Shown here: positions 1-49,363 of the stretch, piece after piece
Numbering within the stretch: position 1 is the first letter of the stretch
How the letters are laid out: every line of letters starts with the position of its first letter
Notes under the pieces: generated by a model
The model's input: the letters and a program-made list of their open reading frames with translations, nothing else
Told to the model about the DNA's origin: nothing
Databases searched by the model: none
Position numbers and translations under genes: made by a program
DNA from: Escherichia phage AV115
Reading direction: 5' to 3' (one strand)
Length of the DNA stretch: 64,000 nucleotides
Sequence record: OR352945.1

Positions 1-2317
<2,317 letters not shown>

Positions 2318-41852: not shown

Positions 41853-42355
41853 TTAGAAATATTTTTTGTATGAATTGATTACATTTTGGTCTACATCATT
41901 ATCAATTTGTGCGACAAGATAAGAACTGATTTCAACTTCCTGAGGAGCTGCTTGAACTAAATCAGAGTTCAGATATTCACGAATCCAAGGATAAGGATGT
42001 TTGGTCGGAGCATCAGTAATTGGACACGGCAAACCACACTGTTTCATACGAGACACAGTCAAGTAATCAACAAAAGCACACATACTCTGTGTATTGATAC
42101 CTGGACATGTACCGTCTTTAAAGAGGTGTGCAGCCCATTCCTTCTCTTGACTATTTACTTCCATAAAAATGTCAACTGCTTCTTGTTCACATTCTTTAGC
42201 AATTTGAACCCACTCATCACCATCAGTACCGGATTGAAGTTGACGGATAATGTACTGAGTACCCTTGAGATGGAGTTGTTCGTCACGAGCAATGAACTTC
42301 ATAATCTTTGCATTGCCTTCCATAATTTCCATATTCTTATGGAAATTAAATGTAC
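41853..42355 (-). CDS. nrdB: ribonucleotide reductase small subunit, exon 2
   Basis: C-terminal NrdB (MEGNAKI..., ARDE..H iron ligands); exon start inferred at 42355 to restore conserved FAC(T)F junction. Confidence 0.8.
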
Positions 42356-42947
42356 CGTTATGTTCGATTGAGCTCGCTAATTCTCAACCCGTTCTCTTAT
42401 GAACTGCTGCATATTACTATGCAGACCAGACTATATCACAATCCCGGAGGGATTCTCCCCATTTCGAGTCGCTTGACCCTACGTCCGAAGACTAGTCGTT
42501 GAACCTTGCTTTGCAATTGTCGCCGTGCCATCGTTTATATGTCGATGGTGATAAATCTTTCTTTTCACAATATGGACAATTCAATTGAATTCTATTTGGA
42601 TTTAATTTGCATCTGTCATTATGTTTTAGATAAAACCCAGGACCTTTACCAATGTGACCGCAGAAATCACATGTGATTTCTTTTTGTGCAGGATGGGTTC
42701 CGTTCTTAACCATTTCTAATGTTTTTGCTGATGTTCTTCCATCAGAATCTTTAGGTATAGGCCCGTTAGCATCCATCCAAATTTTTCTATAATTCAATTG
42801 TGCATCCTCTTAAAAGTATAATCATATTTATTTTATAATATACTAATTAAAGGTGCAAGCAAAACCTTGGCTGCTAGTTTTCCTATAAAGGACTTTCCAG
42901 CAATTAAAGGAGTTTTCGATAAACGTTACCGTTTAAAGGCGCATTTT
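42356..42947 (-). mobile_element. group I self-splicing intron in nrdB
   Basis: ~592 nt interrupting conserved NrdB sequence between YVSFA and MEGNAKI; 5' exon ends in U, intron ends in G; boundaries approximate. Confidence 0.75.
42492..42797 (-). pseudogene. I-TevIII-like homing endonuclease remnant (intron ORF)
   Basis: 101 aa ORF inside intron with TTG start; CxxC...CxxC zinc-finger-like region but no HNH catalytic motif. Confidence 0.5.
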
Positions 42948-43623
42948 ACGCAAAAGATACATAAAAACGAATAGCTTCCAATGCATTGATGACATGCAAA
43001 CAAAGATAAAGAGATTTCATTAGGTCTCGTTTAGCTTCGGTCTCTTGTTTAATAGCTCGGTTTAAACGAAGGTCGGCATCAGGAGATTCTTTAGCTTGTT
43101 CTACAAATTCTTTAGCATTTTCCCAATTACGAGTCTTGACTAGAACATCATCATAATATTTACCTATTGATTCAGCTCGTTTCATGATTGCTTCGTCTAA
43201 TACAATCTCATCAAATACTTTGGATGGATCGGTATAAAGATTTCGCATAATATGAGTATACGAACGAGAGTGAATAGTTTCACTGAATGTCCATGTTGCA
43301 ACCCACGTATCTAATGAAGGGTCGGAAAGCAGTGCCATAAGTACCGCAGATGGGGCCCTGCCTTGGATAGAATCTAATAATGATTGATACTTAAGGTTGT
43401 TTGTAAAGATGTCCTGTTGGAACTGAGGAAGCTTATTGAACTGGGCCGAATCCAGCATCAGGTTTACTTCTTCTGGTCGCCAGAAAAACGACAATTGCTT
43501 TTCAATAAGTTCTTCAAAAACTTTATGTCGCTGAATATCATAACGTGCGAGGCCAAGACCAGAACCAAAGAACATTGGTTCATTCAAAACATCGACTTGT
43601 TGTGTGTTAAAAACTGTACTCAT
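42948..43623 (-). CDS. nrdB: ribonucleotide reductase small subunit, exon 1
   Basis: N-terminal NrdB (...EAIRFYVSFA); in-frame stop lies within intron. Confidence 0.85.
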
Positions 43624-43678: not shown

Positions 43679-45943
43679 TTAAAGCTTACAAGCAGAACAA
43701 TCTTCAGCTTTAGGTGTTTCTAATTCATAGTCATCTGTACCTGACCCATCACGAGTGTTATGATAGTAGAGGTTTTTTCCGCCAAAGTACCAGAAGTAAA
43801 GCAGATCGTCAAGCATTACTGACATTGGCACTTTACCTTTCTCAAATACTGCAGGGTCATAGTAAGTATTAGCAGAAGCAGATTGGCACACCCATTTCAA
43901 CATGATAGCAACTTGGGTCAAATAAGGTTTATTACCTTTCTTAGCAAGTTTCCACGCGTAGTCGTAAAGACTCATGTTATGTTCTATATTAGGAACAACC
44001 TGTCGGAAGTTGCCTTCTTTAGATTCTTTAATACTTACAGGTCCACGAGGTGGTTCTATACCATTTGTGCTATTTGAGACTTGACTGCTTGACTCACAAG
44101 GCATGAGTGCAGACAACGTTGAGTTACGAATTCCATGTTCTTTGAGTTCAGCTCGAAGTTCTTCCCAGTCACAGACATAGTTCGGGGCTGCGATTTGGTC
44201 AATCTTTTTATTGTACCAGTCGATAGGTAATTCGCCTCTAGACCATTTAGTGTCTGAATAATACTCACAAGGTCCTTTTTCTTTGGCGAGTTTGATTGAT
44301 GCTTTGATAAGGCCATATTGCAATCTCTCGAACAATTCATGGGTCAAATCGTTAGCGTCTTCATATGAAGCAAAGTTAGAAGCTAACCATGCAGCATAGT
44401 TCGTCACACCAACACCGAGATTTCGACGCTTTTTAGCTTTTAAAGCTTCTGGAACCGGATAATCTTGATAGTCTAACAGGTTATCAAGTGCACGTACTTG
44501 TACTTCAGCAAGTTCATTAATTTTATCTTGGTCTTGCCAATCAAATTTATCTAATACAAAAGCAGATAATGTGCATAAACCAATTTCAGCATCAGGACCA
44601 TTCACATCATTAGTTGGAATAGCGATTTCACAACATAAGTTACTCTGACGAATTGGAGCTTTTTCACGAATAAACGGAGTGTAGTTATTCGTGTTATCAA
44701 CAAACTGTGGATAAATTCGAGCAGTGCCAGAACGTTCAGTCATGAACAATTCAAAGAGTTCTAGTGCTTTGATTCTTTTCTTTCTGATTGTTGGGTCTTT
44801 TTCAGCTTTCTCATAAAGCTCACGGAATTTATCTTGATCTTCAAAGAACGAGTAGTATAGTTCACCTGACATTTCGTGAGGGCTAAATAAAGTAATATAA
44901 TCATTTTTACCAAGGCGTTCCATCATAAGGTCATTAATCTGAATTCCGTAGTCCATATGTCGAATACGGTTTTCATCCACGCCTTTGTTATTTTTCAGAA
45001 CTAATAGGTTCTCTACTTCTAAGTGCCACATCGGATAATACGCTGTAGCAGCACCACCACGAATACCACCTTGAGAACAAGATTTTACTGCAGTTTGGAA
45101 ATGTTTCCAGAATGGAATAACACCTGTATGTCGAACTTCACCCGTACCGATCTTAGAACCTTCTGCACGAAGCATACCAACGTTGATACCGATACCAGCT
45201 CGTTTAGAAATATATTCAATAATTGATGCTGAAGTTTTGTTAATAGATTTTAACGAATCACCTGCTTCAATAACTACACAACTAGAGAACTGGCGAGTTG
45301 GAGTACGAGCACCTGCCATAATTGGGGTTGGCAATGAAACTTGATGAGTAGAAACGGCATCATAAAAACGAATAATATGTTTCAAACGGTCATGAGTTTC
45401 GTCTTGGTGTAAGGCCATGCCAATAGCCATGATAGCAAACTGGGGAGTTTCATAAATCTTCCCAGTTGTTTTATCTTTAACTAGATATTTTTCTTTAAGC
45501 TGCATAGCACCAGCATAAGTCAGGTCAAAGTCTCGTTCATGTTTAATCTGTGAATCGAGATAAATGATTTCTTCTGCTGAATATTGAGACAACAGCTCAG
45601 GGTCATATTTGCCTTCATTAACACAGTAAGAAATATGGTCTATAAAAGCAGGCGGTTCAAACTGCCCATATACATCTTTACGAAGTGCAAACATTAGCCC
45701 TTTGGCGGCGACATACTGATAATCAGGTTCTTCGACAGAAATCAAGTTAGCTGCAACTTTAATACAAATCTTCTGAATATCTTTGGTGCTCATCCCGTCG
45801 ACAAGATGGGTCTTAATTTCTTCATACAATTCGTATGGGTCGATTTGTGTTCCTTCACACTGCCAAGTTAATACTTGAATAATTTTCTGTGCATCAAAAT
45901 TTTGGGATACACCTGAATTTTTCACTACTTTAAAATTATACAT
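43679..45943 (-). CDS. nrdA: ribonucleotide reductase large subunit
   Basis: 754 aa; close to T4 NrdA; C-terminal CxxC. Confidence 0.97.
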   Translation of the reverse strand: MYNFKVVKNSGVSQNFDAQKIIQVLTWQCEGTQIDPYELYEEIKTHLVDGMSTKDIQKICIKVAANLISVEEPDYQYVAAKGLMFALRKDVYGQFEPPAFIDHISYCVNEGKYDPELLSQYSAEEIIYLDSQIKHERDFDLTYAGAMQLKEKYLVKDKTTGKIYETPQFAIMAIGMALHQDETHDRLKHIIRFYDAVSTHQVSLPTPIMAGARTPTRQFSSCVVIEAGDSLKSINKTSASIIEYISKRAGIGINVGMLRAEGSKIGTGEVRHTGVIPFWKHFQTAVKSCSQGGIRGGAATAYYPMWHLEVENLLVLKNNKGVDENRIRHMDYGIQINDLMMERLGKNDYITLFSPHEMSGELYYSFFEDQDKFRELYEKAEKDPTIRKKRIKALELFELFMTERSGTARIYPQFVDNTNNYTPFIREKAPIRQSNLCCEIAIPTNDVNGPDAEIGLCTLSAFVLDKFDWQDQDKINELAEVQVRALDNLLDYQDYPVPEALKAKKRRNLGVGVTNYAAWLASNFASYEDANDLTHELFERLQYGLIKASIKLAKEKGPCEYYSDTKWSRGELPIDWYNKKIDQIAAPNYVCDWEELRAELKEHGIRNSTLSALMPCESSSQVSNSTNGIEPPRGPVSIKESKEGNFRQVVPNIEHNMSLYDYAWKLAKKGNKPYLTQVAIMLKWVCQSASANTYYDPAVFEKGKVPMSVMLDDLLYFWYFGGKNLYYHNTRDGSGTDDYELETPKAEDCSACKL

Positions 45944-46571
45944 AATAATTCCATGTTGGATAATTTGATGATTTTAGACGGCGTCTAACCGTTTGGGTGC
46001 TCATAGATAAAATTATTGACGCTTCATTTAATGTATCATATATTACGTCGTTTATAATTACTTTCTTTGCAAATGGATTCTTAGCTCCTATCATAGCGTT
46101 AGAAATAGCTTGCTTAGTTGATTCTTTTAATGGGACTCCTTTAGAAATTTTTGTTTTAATTTTTATATTGTATTGTCCGCGTTTTTTACCTAATAAAGAA
46201 TTTCGTATCTTTTCTTTAGTCTCTTCAGATTTAACATGTCCTAGTTTGGAACGAGATATTTTATCTTTTGTTTTTTGGTCTAATTTTCGCCCTTTAAGCA
46301 AATCAACCATTTTTGCTCTAGCCCATCCAAATTCTTTATTATTTCTAGAACTCATTAAATTAACCGCGGTTGCTAAACCTAAATTGTTCGGATATATTTT
46401 TAATAAAAGAAGATGAGCCAAATAATGTTCTGAATATGTTAATTTAACTAGATTGTATGACTCATTGGTGCCACCTAAACATTTTGGGATTATATGATGC
46501 CATTCACCATCGATATCTTCAAAATTTCTTTCTTTATTTACTAAGTTTTTATATATTTTTAAATAATCCAT
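45936..46571 (-). CDS. HNH homing endonuclease (MobE-like)
   Basis: HNH motif EWHHIIPKCLGG...NLV; repeated K-rich NUMOD-like segments; track start GTG 46583, ATG at 46571; 3' end overlaps nrdA start. Confidence 0.8.
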   Translation of the reverse strand: MDYLKIYKNLVNKERNFEDIDGEWHHIIPKCLGGTNESYNLVKLTYSEHYLAHLLLLKIYPNNLGLATAVNLMSSRNNKEFGWARAKMVDLLKGRKLDQKTKDKISRSKLGHVKSEETKEKIRNSLLGKKRGQYNIKIKTKISKGVPLKESTKQAISNAMIGAKNPFAKKVIINDVIYDTLNEASIILSMSTQTVRRRLKSSNYPTWNYYV

Positions 46572-46646
46572 AGTATAATCCACTTTGTAGTATCAACGGG
46601 ATAGTATTTATCCCGTTAATTTATTATACACTTTTAAACTGAAGCG

Positions 46647-46901
46647 TTAATTATCCTCAGCAATAATTTCTTCGTATTCTTTAGGTGTCAAGACCGTGAT
46701 ATTGAAATAAACCAACGGTTCTTTTTCCACACCGTAACCACCACAGAATTCACGATATTCATAAATTCGTTCATGTGAATAACAAATGAATCGTTCACCT
46801 TTAACTATGATTTCACTATTCGGTGAAGGGATATCTAGTTCGGTAGGATTTTTCATTTCAAAAATTGTGGTGCCATATGAATTAATAAAACGTAAAATCA
46901 T
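46647..46901 (-). CDS. hypothetical protein
   Basis: 84 aa; ATG 1 nt after td stop. Confidence 0.4.
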   Translation of the reverse strand: MILRFINSYGTTIFEMKNPTELDIPSPNSEIIVKGERFICYSHERIYEYREFCGGYGVEKEPLVYFNITVLTPKEYEEIIAEDN

Positions 46902-46902
46902 T

Positions 46903-47214
46903 TTATACCGCCATTTTAGCTTTGATAGCTGGATGTGATTCGTAATTTTTAAGAACGAAATCAGAATGTGTCATCGTTCCGGTAACCCAGTCCATTTGGA
47001 TTTTTGTAGGCCAATTCTCAAAATTACTAGGCCAATTAATTTCAAGAGAACATAACTCTTTAGGTTCATGACGAAGAACTTCTTTGCATTGTTCTACATG
47101 ATTGCTGTAGATATGCGTGTTGCCGCCTGAGAACACTAAATCACCTGGGATAAGGTTACACATCTTCGCTACAATATGTGTCAAGGCAGCGTACGAGGCG
47201 ATGTTGAACGGTAG
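46903..47214 (-). CDS. td: thymidylate synthase, exon 2
   Basis: C-terminal TS (LPFNIASYA...); track ATG at 47215-47217 is the last 3 nt of the intron (cataATG|CTACCG). Confidence 0.93.
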   Translation of the reverse strand, partial: LPFNIASYAALTHIVAKMCNLIPGDLVFSGGNTHIYSNHVEQCKEVLRHEPKELCSLEINWPSNFENWPTKIQMDWVTGTMTHSDFVLKNYESHPAIKAKMAV

Positions 47215-48230
47215 CATTATGTTCAGATAAGGTCGTTAATCTTATCCCGGAATTATATCCAGCTGCATGTCACCATGCAGAGCAGACTATATCTCCAACT
47301 TGTTAAAGCAAGTTGTCTATCGTTTCGAGTCACTTGACCCTACTCCCTAAAGGGATAGTCGTTAGGCATTTATGTAGAACCAATTCCACTTATCAGATTT
47401 TACACGGTAAGTAACTAATCCTGATGAAATTTCAAAATGTCTAGCCGCATCGGCTGCACATTCAAAAATAATCCCATCGCATGAAATCTTTTTGATGTTA
47501 GCTGGCTTTTTGCCTTTCATCTTTTCAGATAGTTTAGTTTTAGTTTTTTCTGAATGTTTGTGATTAAAGAACGGGTTATTTTCACCTGAACGTTTTCGGC
47601 ACTTTCCACAAGTATCGGCCGAAGATGGTATGCGAACACCGCATTTACAAAACTTGTGGTTTTCTGGATTCCATCGGCCATTTTTACTTCCGTGTTTACC
47701 ATAAAGAGCTTTCCGACCATCAGGACCAAGCTTAAGCATCTTAGCTTTAACAGTTTCAGCTCGTTTCTTAGCAATTTCTTCTTTTAATGGATGATTTGAA
47801 AGCACATCGCCAAAAGACGCATCAGCAATATTATATCCATTAATTTTAGAATTTAGCTCTTTAATCCAAAAATTTTCTCGTTCAATAATCAAATCTTTCT
47901 CATATGGAATTTCTTCCAGTATAGAGCATTCAAAAACATTACCATGTTTATTAAAAGACCTTTGAAATTTTATAGAAGAGTGAACACCGTTTTCAAGGTC
48001 TTTAAAATGTCTCTTCCATCTTTTCTCAAAATCTTTAGCACTTCCAACATACACTTTACCGTTTAAAGTGTTTTTAATCTGATAAATTCCGCTTTTCATA
48101 AACACCTCTTTTTATATAGAAGTATTTATTAAAGGGTAGTCCTACAATTTAGCACGGGATTGTCTACTAGAGAGGTCCCCCGTTTAGATAGATTACAAGT
48201 ATAAGTCACCTTATACCTAGGCCTAAATTA
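47215..48230 (-). mobile_element. group I self-splicing intron in td
   Basis: 1016 nt; 5' and 3' intron sequences as I recall the T4 td intron; exon 1 ends ...GGT. Confidence 0.93.
47362..48099 (-). CDS. I-TevI: intron-encoded GIY-YIG homing endonuclease I-TevI
   Basis: 245 aa from ATG 48099 (track GTG start at 48105); MKSGIYQIKNT...; GIY-YIG plus zinc finger. Confidence 0.97.
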   Translation of the reverse strand: MKSGIYQIKNTLNGKVYVGSAKDFEKRWKRHFKDLENGVHSSIKFQRSFNKHGNVFECSILEEIPYEKDLIIERENFWIKELNSKINGYNIADASFGDVLSNHPLKEEIAKKRAETVKAKMLKLGPDGRKALYGKHGSKNGRWNPENHKFCKCGVRIPSSADTCGKCRKRSGENNPFFNHKHSEKTKTKLSEKMKGKKPANIKKISCDGIIFECAADAARHFEISSGLVTYRVKSDKWNWFYINA

Positions 48231-48779
48231 ACCTAAGAAAACATCTACACTGCGTTGATACCATTGTAAATCAAGATGACCATTACGCACATTGAACTGA
48301 TAGAACATATGGCAAGGAGGAAGAGCCATTTGATTTATTTCAGCCGGATTCCAGGCAGAAACAATTTGACGACGATCAGTTGGTAATTTTTTAATACGGT
48401 CGATTGTTTCAACTAATTGGTCTACACCACCAAAATCACGCCATTGCTTACCATAAATAGGACCAAGTTCGCCGCTATGATATCCAAGGTCTTTTGCCTG
48501 ATTTTCATAGTTGTCGTCCCAAATAGTTTTACCTTGAATAAGACTACCATGAGTACGAATACGCAAATCATTAACATTGGTAGAACCAGACATGAACCAC
48601 AGTAACTCGGCAATACAAGCTTTCCATGCTAATTTCTTAGTTGTTACTGCAGGAAATCCTTTAGTAAGGTCCCAACGTAATTTAGTTCCGAACAGGGCAA
48701 TAGTGCCGGTACCTGTACGGTCGTCTGTTTCGTAGCCATTTTCTAAGATATCTTTAATCAGGTATTGGTATTGTTTCAT
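48231..48779 (-). CDS. td: thymidylate synthase, exon 1
   Basis: N-terminal TS with active-site region PPCH; 183 codons. Confidence 0.95.
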
Positions 48780-49363
48780 TTATATACGCTCTCAGTAATT
48801 TCGGTGAGTTCATCGATTCTGTAGTAATGAGATTCTACCATAGAACGTTGAAGCATAATATCTTGGACGAAATCTTTATCAAGTTGAACATCGGAATTAA
48901 CACGACATTTCTTAATGATTTTAGTCATCACGATTTCATCGGCATAAGGCAGTGCTTGTTTTAATAGAGCAGGGCCACCAATAATAGATACATCAACATG
49001 TTCAGTAGAAAGTTTAAACGGTACGTCAGTTGCAGGGCTAAACAGGTTAATTTCACCACCCGTTACCAAGGTAATAAATTCTGCTTGGGTGATATAGAAC
49101 CGTGCAAGTTCGTTGGTTTTGGTCCTAGGCAGTTTTCTGGCCATATCAGTGACAACCACATGAGTACGATCCTGGAGTAGACGAGGTAATGATGCAAAAG
49201 TCTTAGCACCCATAACCATTACAGTGTTTTTAGTGCGAGCAACAAAGTTACTCATATCTTGTTTGATATGCTTCCATGGAAGTCCATCACCTAATCCAAA
49301 AGCATATTCCAGTTTATCATCAACTGTTTTAGTCGGAGCGCATGCGAATACTAATTTAAGCAT
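48776..49363 (-). CDS. frd: dihydrofolate reductase
   Basis: 195 aa; stop overlaps td start; T4 Frd length and position. Confidence 0.9.
   Translation of the reverse strand: MLKLVFACAPTKTVDDKLEYAFGLGDGLPWKHIKQDMSNFVARTKNTVMVMGAKTFASLPRLLQDRTHVVVTDMARKLPRTKTNELARFYITQAEFITLVTGGEINLFSPATDVPFKLSTEHVDVSIIGGPALLKQALPYADEIVMTKIIKKCRVNSDVQLDKDFVQDIMLQRSMVESHYYRIDELTEITESVYK

Follow-up and report, generated by a model that had tools for sequence, protein, structure and literature searches.

A td group I intron with a full-length I-TevI gene in the thymidylate synthase gene of the Mosigvirus Escherichia phage AV115

Mobile group I introns of bacteria have their founding example in the td intron with its endonuclease I-TevI. 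In the window analysed here, by which we mean the whole stretch of 64,000 nt from Escherichia phage AV115 (OR352945.1), a T4-like (RB69-type) coliphage of the genus Mosigvirus, the td region was read directly and recomputed; it lies on the minus strand, and an ORF finder returns three pieces: an ORF of 183 aa (48228..48779), one of 247 aa (47362..48105, with an ATG at 48099) and one of 104 aa (46903..47217). The question raised by this locus is what separates the pieces of thymidylate synthase, and whether the separating element could still splice and move. Our answer, given with high confidence, is that a Mosigvirus td gene is interrupted at the canonical site by a self-splicing td group I (IA) intron, with a functional-looking I-TevI gene looped out from P6; nothing in the sequence contradicts this explanation. 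The evidence from AV115 consists of sequence anatomy, homology, conserved pairing, purifying selection and a presence/absence polymorphism. The flanking genes are frd (48776..49363) on one side, its stop codon overlapped by the start of td, and an nrdA.2-like ORF followed by nrdA on the other.

Exon 1 of td (48779..48231, minus strand) comprises 549 nt, codons 1-183 of thymidylate synthase, and ends in ...TTC TTA GGT, that is ...CAACGCAGTGTAGATGTTTTCTTAGGT; exon 2 (47214..46903, minus strand) comprises 312 nt including the stop codon, supplies codons 184-286 and begins CTACCGTTCAAC. Between them lies an intron of 1016 nt (48230..47215, minus strand), running from U1 at 48230 to the terminal G at 47215, which starts TAATTTAGGCC and ends ...GAACATAATG. 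The stop codon that closes the 183-aa ORF is formed by the first three bases of the intron, and the ATG of the exon-2 ORF (47215-47217) is, as the initial annotation had claimed, nothing but its final three bases. Joined, the exons encode 286 aa with no internal stop, and the in-frame thymidylate synthase of that length on which the initial annotation had staked its reading is thus obtained from the 549/1016/312 split. The expected spliced sequence reads ...TTCTTAGGT|CTACCGTTC..., and the corresponding protein junction, …RSVDVFLG|LPFNIASYA…, is identical in T4 and in the uninterrupted td of related phages.

That the gene is td was confirmed by two matches of the spliced product: it aligns end to end with the Pfam family Thymidylat_synt (PF00303; 1-266/266, E 1.9e-96), and over residues 1-286 with the structure of T4 thymidylate synthase (1tis; E 1.5e-164). 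The active-site Cys stands in the PPCH motif of ALPPCHMFYQF, encoded in exon 1. Annotated joins in GenBank place the intron in the same way: td of phage U5 is given as 1..549, 1566..1877, and the td intron of TuIa as 190..1205; both introns are 1016 nt long and have the boundaries found in AV115. Alternative boundaries were unneeded, as only the 549/1016/312 arrangement fits the annotated joins of U5 and TuIa and restores the conserved FLG|LPFN.

The interruption sits at the T4 td insertion site and has the ends of a group I intron: the 5' splice site lies at a U, and the last base, at 47215, where the 3' end reads ...AACAUAAUG, is the omega G. In calling it a group I intron the initial annotation was right. 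Its further statement, that the intron ends match those of T4, is true of the 3' end, where the last 37 nt are identical, and needs correction at the 5' end, where TAATTTAGGCCTAGGT in AV115 compares with TAATTGAGGCCTGAGT in T4, three differences in 16 nt. The claim of equal length likewise survives in part: 1016 nt is found in the U5 and TuIa records, whereas the T4 RefSeq (NC_000866.4) gives 1017 nt by alignment, the extra base of the T4 intron lying upstream of the ORF. The length of 1016 nt is also the figure in the literature; a literature search for a td intron length of 1016 or 1017 nt gave no hit.

Does the intervening sequence have the anatomy of a group I ribozyme? A td-type structure (P1-P9, P7.1, P7.2, P9.1 and P9.2, together with a hairpin ahead of the ORF) was written from the AV115 sequence and the T4 model, and pairs were counted in an alignment of ten td introns (AV115, T4, TuIa, U5, LF82-4, G2285, Lv5cm, HMGUkp2, Lutter and EcL8g). 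The 5' core (48141..48230, minus strand; intron 1-90) holds the 3' strand of P1, P2, the 5' strand of P3, P4, P5 and the 5' strand of P6; the 3' core (47215..47366, minus strand; intron 865-1016) holds, in order, the 3' strand of P6, P7, P7.1, P7.2, the 3' strand of P3, P8, the 3' strand of P7, P9, P9.1, P9.2 and the terminal G. Present, then, are a P3-P8 core with the P3/P7 pseudoknot, a P4-P6 domain and the P7.1/P7.2 typical of subgroup IA. We infer a td-type subgroup IA intron, and guanosine-dependent self-splicing with exon ligation would be expected from the in-frame junction and the 99.8% identity to the TuIa intron.

The P1 helix (48217..48235, minus strand) is formed by exon positions -5..-1 and intron U1, which pair with the guide GGCCUAG (intron 8-14); exon 1 ends in ...UUAGGU in the RNA, giving a U.G wobble at the splice site. 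Three features here differ from T4: the guide, which is of the GGCCUGAG type in T4, with AG at positions 13-14 in AV115 and GA in T4; the exon Leu codon at P1, TTA in AV115 and TTG in T4; and the P1 loop, with U6 in AV115 and G6 in T4. The three differences at the 5' end all preserve pairing in P1, which is fully paired (100%) in all ten introns, three of its positions varying on one side only. A compensatory double change in P1 (exon TTA with guide AG) was considered and dropped: the pair counts give one-sided, pair-preserving changes only.

Across the ten introns, the 13 helices and the hairpin ahead of the ORF have standard pairs in 99.6% of 825 cells, a share that drops to 32-46% once the 3' partners are shifted by 1-3 columns; the comparison favours the structure since this was written from the same sequence and the T4 model. 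All helices, those of the 5' core included, are 97.5-100% paired. Both partners have changed in three pairs, of which one is in P8 (U-A in place of A-U, U5) and the other two belong to P9.2 (EcL8g), besides eleven further pair types; most pairs are invariant in the ten introns, and the support is one of consistency, with thin covariation. An unconstrained MFE fold of a precursor from which the ORF had been deleted (intron 97-858 replaced by GAAA) recovered 12 of the 13 helices, including all of those in the 5' core; P7 is absent from it because it is the pseudoknot partner of P3, and the two cannot be predicted together.

Group I membership was based on boundaries, homology and these pair counts, and the Rfam model was not relied on. 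At the gathering threshold Rfam reported nothing in the entire 64,000-nt window; below it, Intron_gpI (RF00028) gives a partial match at 47263..47493 (minus strand; 36.2 bits, E 7.6e-07, gathering score 50) covering the P7-P9 half only. Both the low score and the restriction to the 3' half are attributable to the 738-nt ORF, which splits the core. The window holds a second intron, in nrdB, and on both the score of the group I model stays at 36 bits, in the 3' half.

The ORF within the intron (47362..48099, minus strand) has 245 codons and a stop at 47362-47364; its 3' end, including the TAA, lies within the 3' strand of P6. The initial annotation had described it as full-length I-TevI, 245 aa from the ATG at 48099, and this is borne out by four domains, by 89% identity to T4 I-TevI (218/245 residues, gapless) and by purifying selection. 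The Pfam matches, each exceeding its cut-off, are GIY-YIG (PF01541; residues 3-90, E 8e-17), the Cys4 zinc finger I-TevI_ZnF of the linker (PF22635; residues 149-179, E 1.8e-17), the minor-groove helix NUMOD3 (PF07460; residues 171-191, E 2.3e-05) and the C-terminal helix-turn-helix I-TevI_DNA-bd (PF20987; residues 192-242, E 1.9e-31). Among known structures, 1mk0/1ln0 match residues 1-97 (E ~2e-57) and 1i3j matches residues 130-245 (E 5e-66). In the alignment to T4 the catalytic residues are intact (GIY at 4-6, YVG at 17-19; Y6, Y17, R27, H40, E75 and N90), as are the four zinc-finger cysteines. When the ORF was compared pairwise with those of other td introns, dN/dS lay at 0.09-0.16 in the seven cases, from which we conclude that the protein is under purifying selection.

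The sequence upstream of the ORF has the elements by which expression of I-TevI could be controlled. A predicted hairpin of 12 bp (48098..48129, minus strand; intron 102-133), from AUAAAUACUUCU…AGAGGUGUUUAU, would hide both the Shine-Dalgarno GAGG and the AUG in transcripts begun further upstream; it has a folding energy of -13 kcal/mol (z -5.8), resembles that of T4 in shape and energy, and is 99.2% paired across the ten introns. Its 5' arm is overlapped by a T4 late-promoter-like box, AATAAATA (48123..48130, minus strand), and the identical 8-mer carries a promoter annotation in phage Lutter. The box in turn overlaps a putative operator-like I-TevI site, GTAGGACTACCCTTTAATAAATAC (48121..48145, minus strand). 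With our own anchoring, the sequence surrounding this site, GGACTACCCTTTAATAAAT, is identical to the T4 homing-site core at 15 of 20 positions; as the AV115 intron is one base shorter than that of T4 ahead of the ORF, its operator-like site comes nearer to the T4 homing site (15/20 versus 12/20). At the operator-like site the equivalent of a CNNNG at -27..-23 is absent, and one occurs at -18..-14 only. Control of I-TevI by hairpin, late promoter and operator has been described for T4 (PMC2988022), and the AV115 site matches the published logic of an operator that is bound and left uncut, a function it would share by analogy.

Splicing, regulation, cleavage and homing in AV115 can be drawn by analogy with T4 as follows. 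The pre-mRNA would fold into P1-P9.2, and an exogenous guanosine held in P7 would attack the phosphodiester after the U.G pair of P1; the freed exon 1 would in turn attack behind the terminal G, and ...TTA GGT would be ligated to CTA CCG... in an mRNA for the 286-aa thymidylate synthase. The hairpin that buries the ribosome-binding site would restrain translation of I-TevI until late in infection, when transcripts from the AATAAATA box, beginning within the hairpin, could permit it; I-TevI bound to the operator-like site over the late promoter may then repress its own synthesis. If a phage whose td lacks the intron infects the same cell, I-TevI should bind that td around its insertion site and cleave it 23/25 nt upstream, at CAACG; double-strand-break repair would then copy the intron into the cut td (homing).

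The rule for cleavage by I-TevI combines a CNNNG motif with its distance from the insertion site (PMC2988022). Direct reading of exon 1 places a predicted cleavage motif of this form, CAACG (5'-CNNNG-3'; 48253..48257, minus strand), at -27..-23 from the insertion site, where it encodes Gln-Arg of thymidylate synthase; it is kept at that position in all three intronless td sequences inspected, those of ST0, Shf125875 and APCEc01. As the intronless close relatives keep the motif, it is a reasonable inference that the intron is mobile, as was predicted for it; that this variant of I-TevI cleaves the Mosigvirus target is assumed from the known sequence tolerance of the enzyme.

An improbable alternative is that splicing has been retained and mobility lost, the I-TevI variant being catalytically dead or blind to the Mosigvirus td and its ORF a passenger or a repressor. 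Such a loss could lie in the 27 amino acid differences from T4 I-TevI, several of which fall in the linker, the zinc finger and the DNA-binding region, or in the target, as the region bound by I-TevI has several bases in the intronless Mosigvirus site that differ from those of T4 (CTGCCGTTCAACATT versus CTACCGTTTAATATT); defunct intron endonucleases do exist, I-TevIII of T4 among them (PMC2988022), and the nrdB intron ORF in the same window is short. The td intron ORF, however, is full length with every catalytic and zinc-binding residue present, and its dN/dS of about 0.1 recurs in all seven comparisons. Nearly the same intron (96-99.8% identity) is found moreover in the differing exon backgrounds of TuIa, Lv5cm and LF82-4 and is absent in close relatives, a pattern that active homing would leave.

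The distribution of the intron, on which the reading of a mobile td intron draws, is uneven. The whole region of 1877 nt is 99.9% identical to that of Escherichia phage AV116 (OR352946.1, Mosigvirus), at nearly equal coordinates, and 98-99.6% identical to those of several other Mosigviruses. A 500-nt query across the exon junction matched a continuous Mosigvirus-type td in no fewer than 153 phage records, the best being ST0 at 98.4%; given such uninterrupted genes in close relatives, the intron is polymorphic (present/absent) among them. ST0 was compared directly with the spliced AV115 td sequence: its intronless site reads …CAACGCAGTGTAGATGTTTTCTTGGGTCTGCCGTTCAACATT…, and the exon ends beside the insertion site are TTG GGT|CTG in ST0 versus TTA GGT|CTA in AV115. 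The two differing bases that flank the intron could reflect either a short co-conversion tract or selection for P1/P10 pairing.

Identity to the AV115 intron falls in steps among the other carriers, from 1014/1016 (99.8%) in TuIa (AY262157.1) to 96.2% in LF82-4, 95.7% in Lv5cm, 93.4% in HMGUkp2, about 90% in T4, Lutter and G2285, and 88.7% in U5. The near-twin in TuIa, whose record stems from the 2004 survey by Sandegren and Sjoberg, has the same length, the P1 guide GGCCUAG, the exon end TTA GGT and an identical 3' core; its two substitutions, at intron positions 221 and 309, both fall within the ORF. The exons are less alike, exon 2 being identical at 304/312 positions and the comparable part of exon 1 at only 164/189, and the host genome of the AV115 intron is, in contrast, that of a Mosigvirus close to AV116. 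G2285 is also a Mosigvirus and has exons near those of AV115, yet its intron is of the T4 type with T4-like exon flanks; this pattern suggests that Mosigvirus acquired the td intron on two or more separate occasions.

Compared with td of T4 (NC_000866.4), AV115 shares the insertion site, the architecture, the placing of the ORF in the P6 loop, the late-promoter box, the operator-like site and the hairpin over the ribosome-binding site. The exons have diverged far more than the intron: identity is 79% in exon 1 and 68% in exon 2, against 93% in the 5' core, 88% in the ORF (DNA) and 98.6% in the 3' core. At synonymous sites the ORF has diverged from T4 by 0.51 and exon 1 by 1.6; the intron in the AV115 lineage is therefore younger than the divergence of its host gene from that of T4. 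The lower value for the ORF is what a transfer of the intron between the lineages, later than their split, would be expected to produce. The survey of introns in T-even-like phages by Sandegren and Sjoberg in 2004 reportedly speaks in its title of the "recent transfer of old introns."

A review from 2010 placed the three intron-borne endonuclease genes in the T-even cluster and described RB69 as being without homing endonuclease genes, its cluster as devoid of both these and introns (PMC2993671). The td intron described here occupies an RB69-type genus, from which comparable Mosigvirus genomes are already public and annotated; our literature search found no paper that discusses a td intron in this genus. 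A speculative extension, which we think unlikely, is that the TuIa-type intron forms a distinct lineage which crossed from T-even-type phages into the RB69-type Mosigviruses, and that three of its parts may have become co-adapted to the td of the new host: the I-TevI variant (with 27 substitutions, many of them in the linker, the zinc finger and the DNA-binding region), the operator-like site CTACCCTTTAATA and the P1 guide. If true, this would be a natural case of an endonuclease, an operator and a ribozyme guide co-evolving following a host switch.

A wider comparison is offered by the group I intron in thyA of Bacillus mojavensis and its endonuclease I-BmoI, likewise a GIY-YIG homing endonuclease in an intron of a thymidylate synthase gene. 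I-BmoI has the same modular design as I-TevI and cleaves near conserved active-site codons; the intron is a different one, the enzyme a distantly related one and the host a bacterium.

That td is truly split, with the 183-aa and 104-aa fragments (the latter from the ATG at 47217) translated separately around a free-standing homing endonuclease gene, is scarcely credible: it takes up the ATG at 47215-47217 and the annotation of AV116 and many other records, in which "thymidylate synthase" appears as two CDSs, beside a "homing endonuclease," but the ATG belongs to the conserved intron end (…AUAAUG with its terminal G), the ribozyme core flanks the ORF, excision of exactly 1016 nt restores the frame and the ...DVFLG|LPFNI... 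of uninterrupted td genes, and the curated records of U5 and TuIa give a join, which leaves the two-CDS annotation as an artefact of automatic gene calling. Interruption of a single td by the intron has a practical consequence for annotation: td here is one spliced gene, where most GenBank relatives list two fragments, the second starting from the intron ATG.

The td intron of AV115 with its I-TevI is already known and is an ordinary textbook mobile element; its discovery value is low, because td/I-TevI is a classic system and the copy in AV115 shares 99.8% of its bases with a GenBank entry of 2004, the near-twin in TuIa having been deposited in 2003-2004. What the locus adds is the documentation of T-even-type cargo in RB69-type Mosigviruses, namely the td intron, the nrdB intron and a free-standing HNH gene. 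With alleles that have and lack the intron, and with two intron lineages, the Mosigviruses make a convenient natural system for the study of homing across diverged exons.

In the GenBank records of the closest relatives, td is entered as two distinct “thymidylate synthase” coding sequences, as in Escherichia phage AV116 (OR352946.1, 4001..5877 of the extracted locus), and some records carry the wording “unable to determine exon/intron boundaries.” The second of these coding sequences starts at the ATG that lies at the true 3′ end of the intron, corresponding to 46903..47217 on the minus strand of the window, and the first open reading frame corresponds to 48228..48779. The two-gene form of td is an annotation artefact, and is resolved by the present analysis.

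The td introns of the window (47215..48230), U5 and TuIa are each 1016 nt long, whereas alignment to the window shows that of the T4 RefSeq genome (NC_000866.4; 4548..5564 of the extracted locus) to be 1017 nt. The T4 RefSeq sequence has one additional T, in GGACTTGCCC, where the window, U5 and TuIa read GGACTACCC/GGACTGCCC. The intron of LF82-4 is also 1017 nt long, but through a different single-nucleotide insertion, located in a hairpin loop. In the Mosigvirus G2285 (201..2077 of the extracted locus) the td intron is of the T4 type and not of the TuIa type; the final ~50 nt of exon 1 and the initial ~40 nt of exon 2 are likewise T4-like, and the remaining exon sequence is Mosigvirus-like. 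This pattern suggests that the T4-like flanks were co-converted along with the intron, the donor being a Tequatrovirus.

A group I intron also appears to interrupt nrdB (41853..43623, minus strand), with an approximate extent of 42333..42945. The N-terminal (42946..43623) and C-terminal (41853..42332) reading frames are separated by an ORF of 101 aa (42492..42797), all on the minus strand, which matches the I-TevIII-like PHROGs 12324 and 27406. The Rfam group I intron model (Intron_gpI) gave a partial match here (42407..42644; 35.9 bits, E = 5e-07), under the gathering score. At the gathering threshold this model returned no hits in the 64 kb window, missing the ORF-containing introns of both td and nrdB, and in E-value mode only their 3′ halves were found, at ~36 bits; routine Rfam-based annotation would therefore overlook both of these introns.

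Between nrdA, whose start it overlaps, and an nrdA.2-like ORF lies a free-standing gene for an HNH-type homing endonuclease of 215 aa (45936..46583, minus strand; motif EWHHIIPK…N…H). The protein matches PHROG 655, “homing endonuclease” (E = 7e-46), and its C-terminal end is similar to NUMOD3 and the I-TevI DNA-binding domain. The intronless Mosigviruses ST0, Shf125875 and APCEc01 lack this ORF and have ~87 nt in its place. At an identity of at least 98.6% it was found in only 11 phage records, among them that of SSE1, in which td is intronless; its movement is thus independent of that of the td intron. The nrdA.2-like ORF (84 aa; 46647..46901, minus strand), assigned by family match to DUF5496/PHROG 2458, of unknown function, lies directly 3′ of td and is kept in relatives with and without the intron alike.
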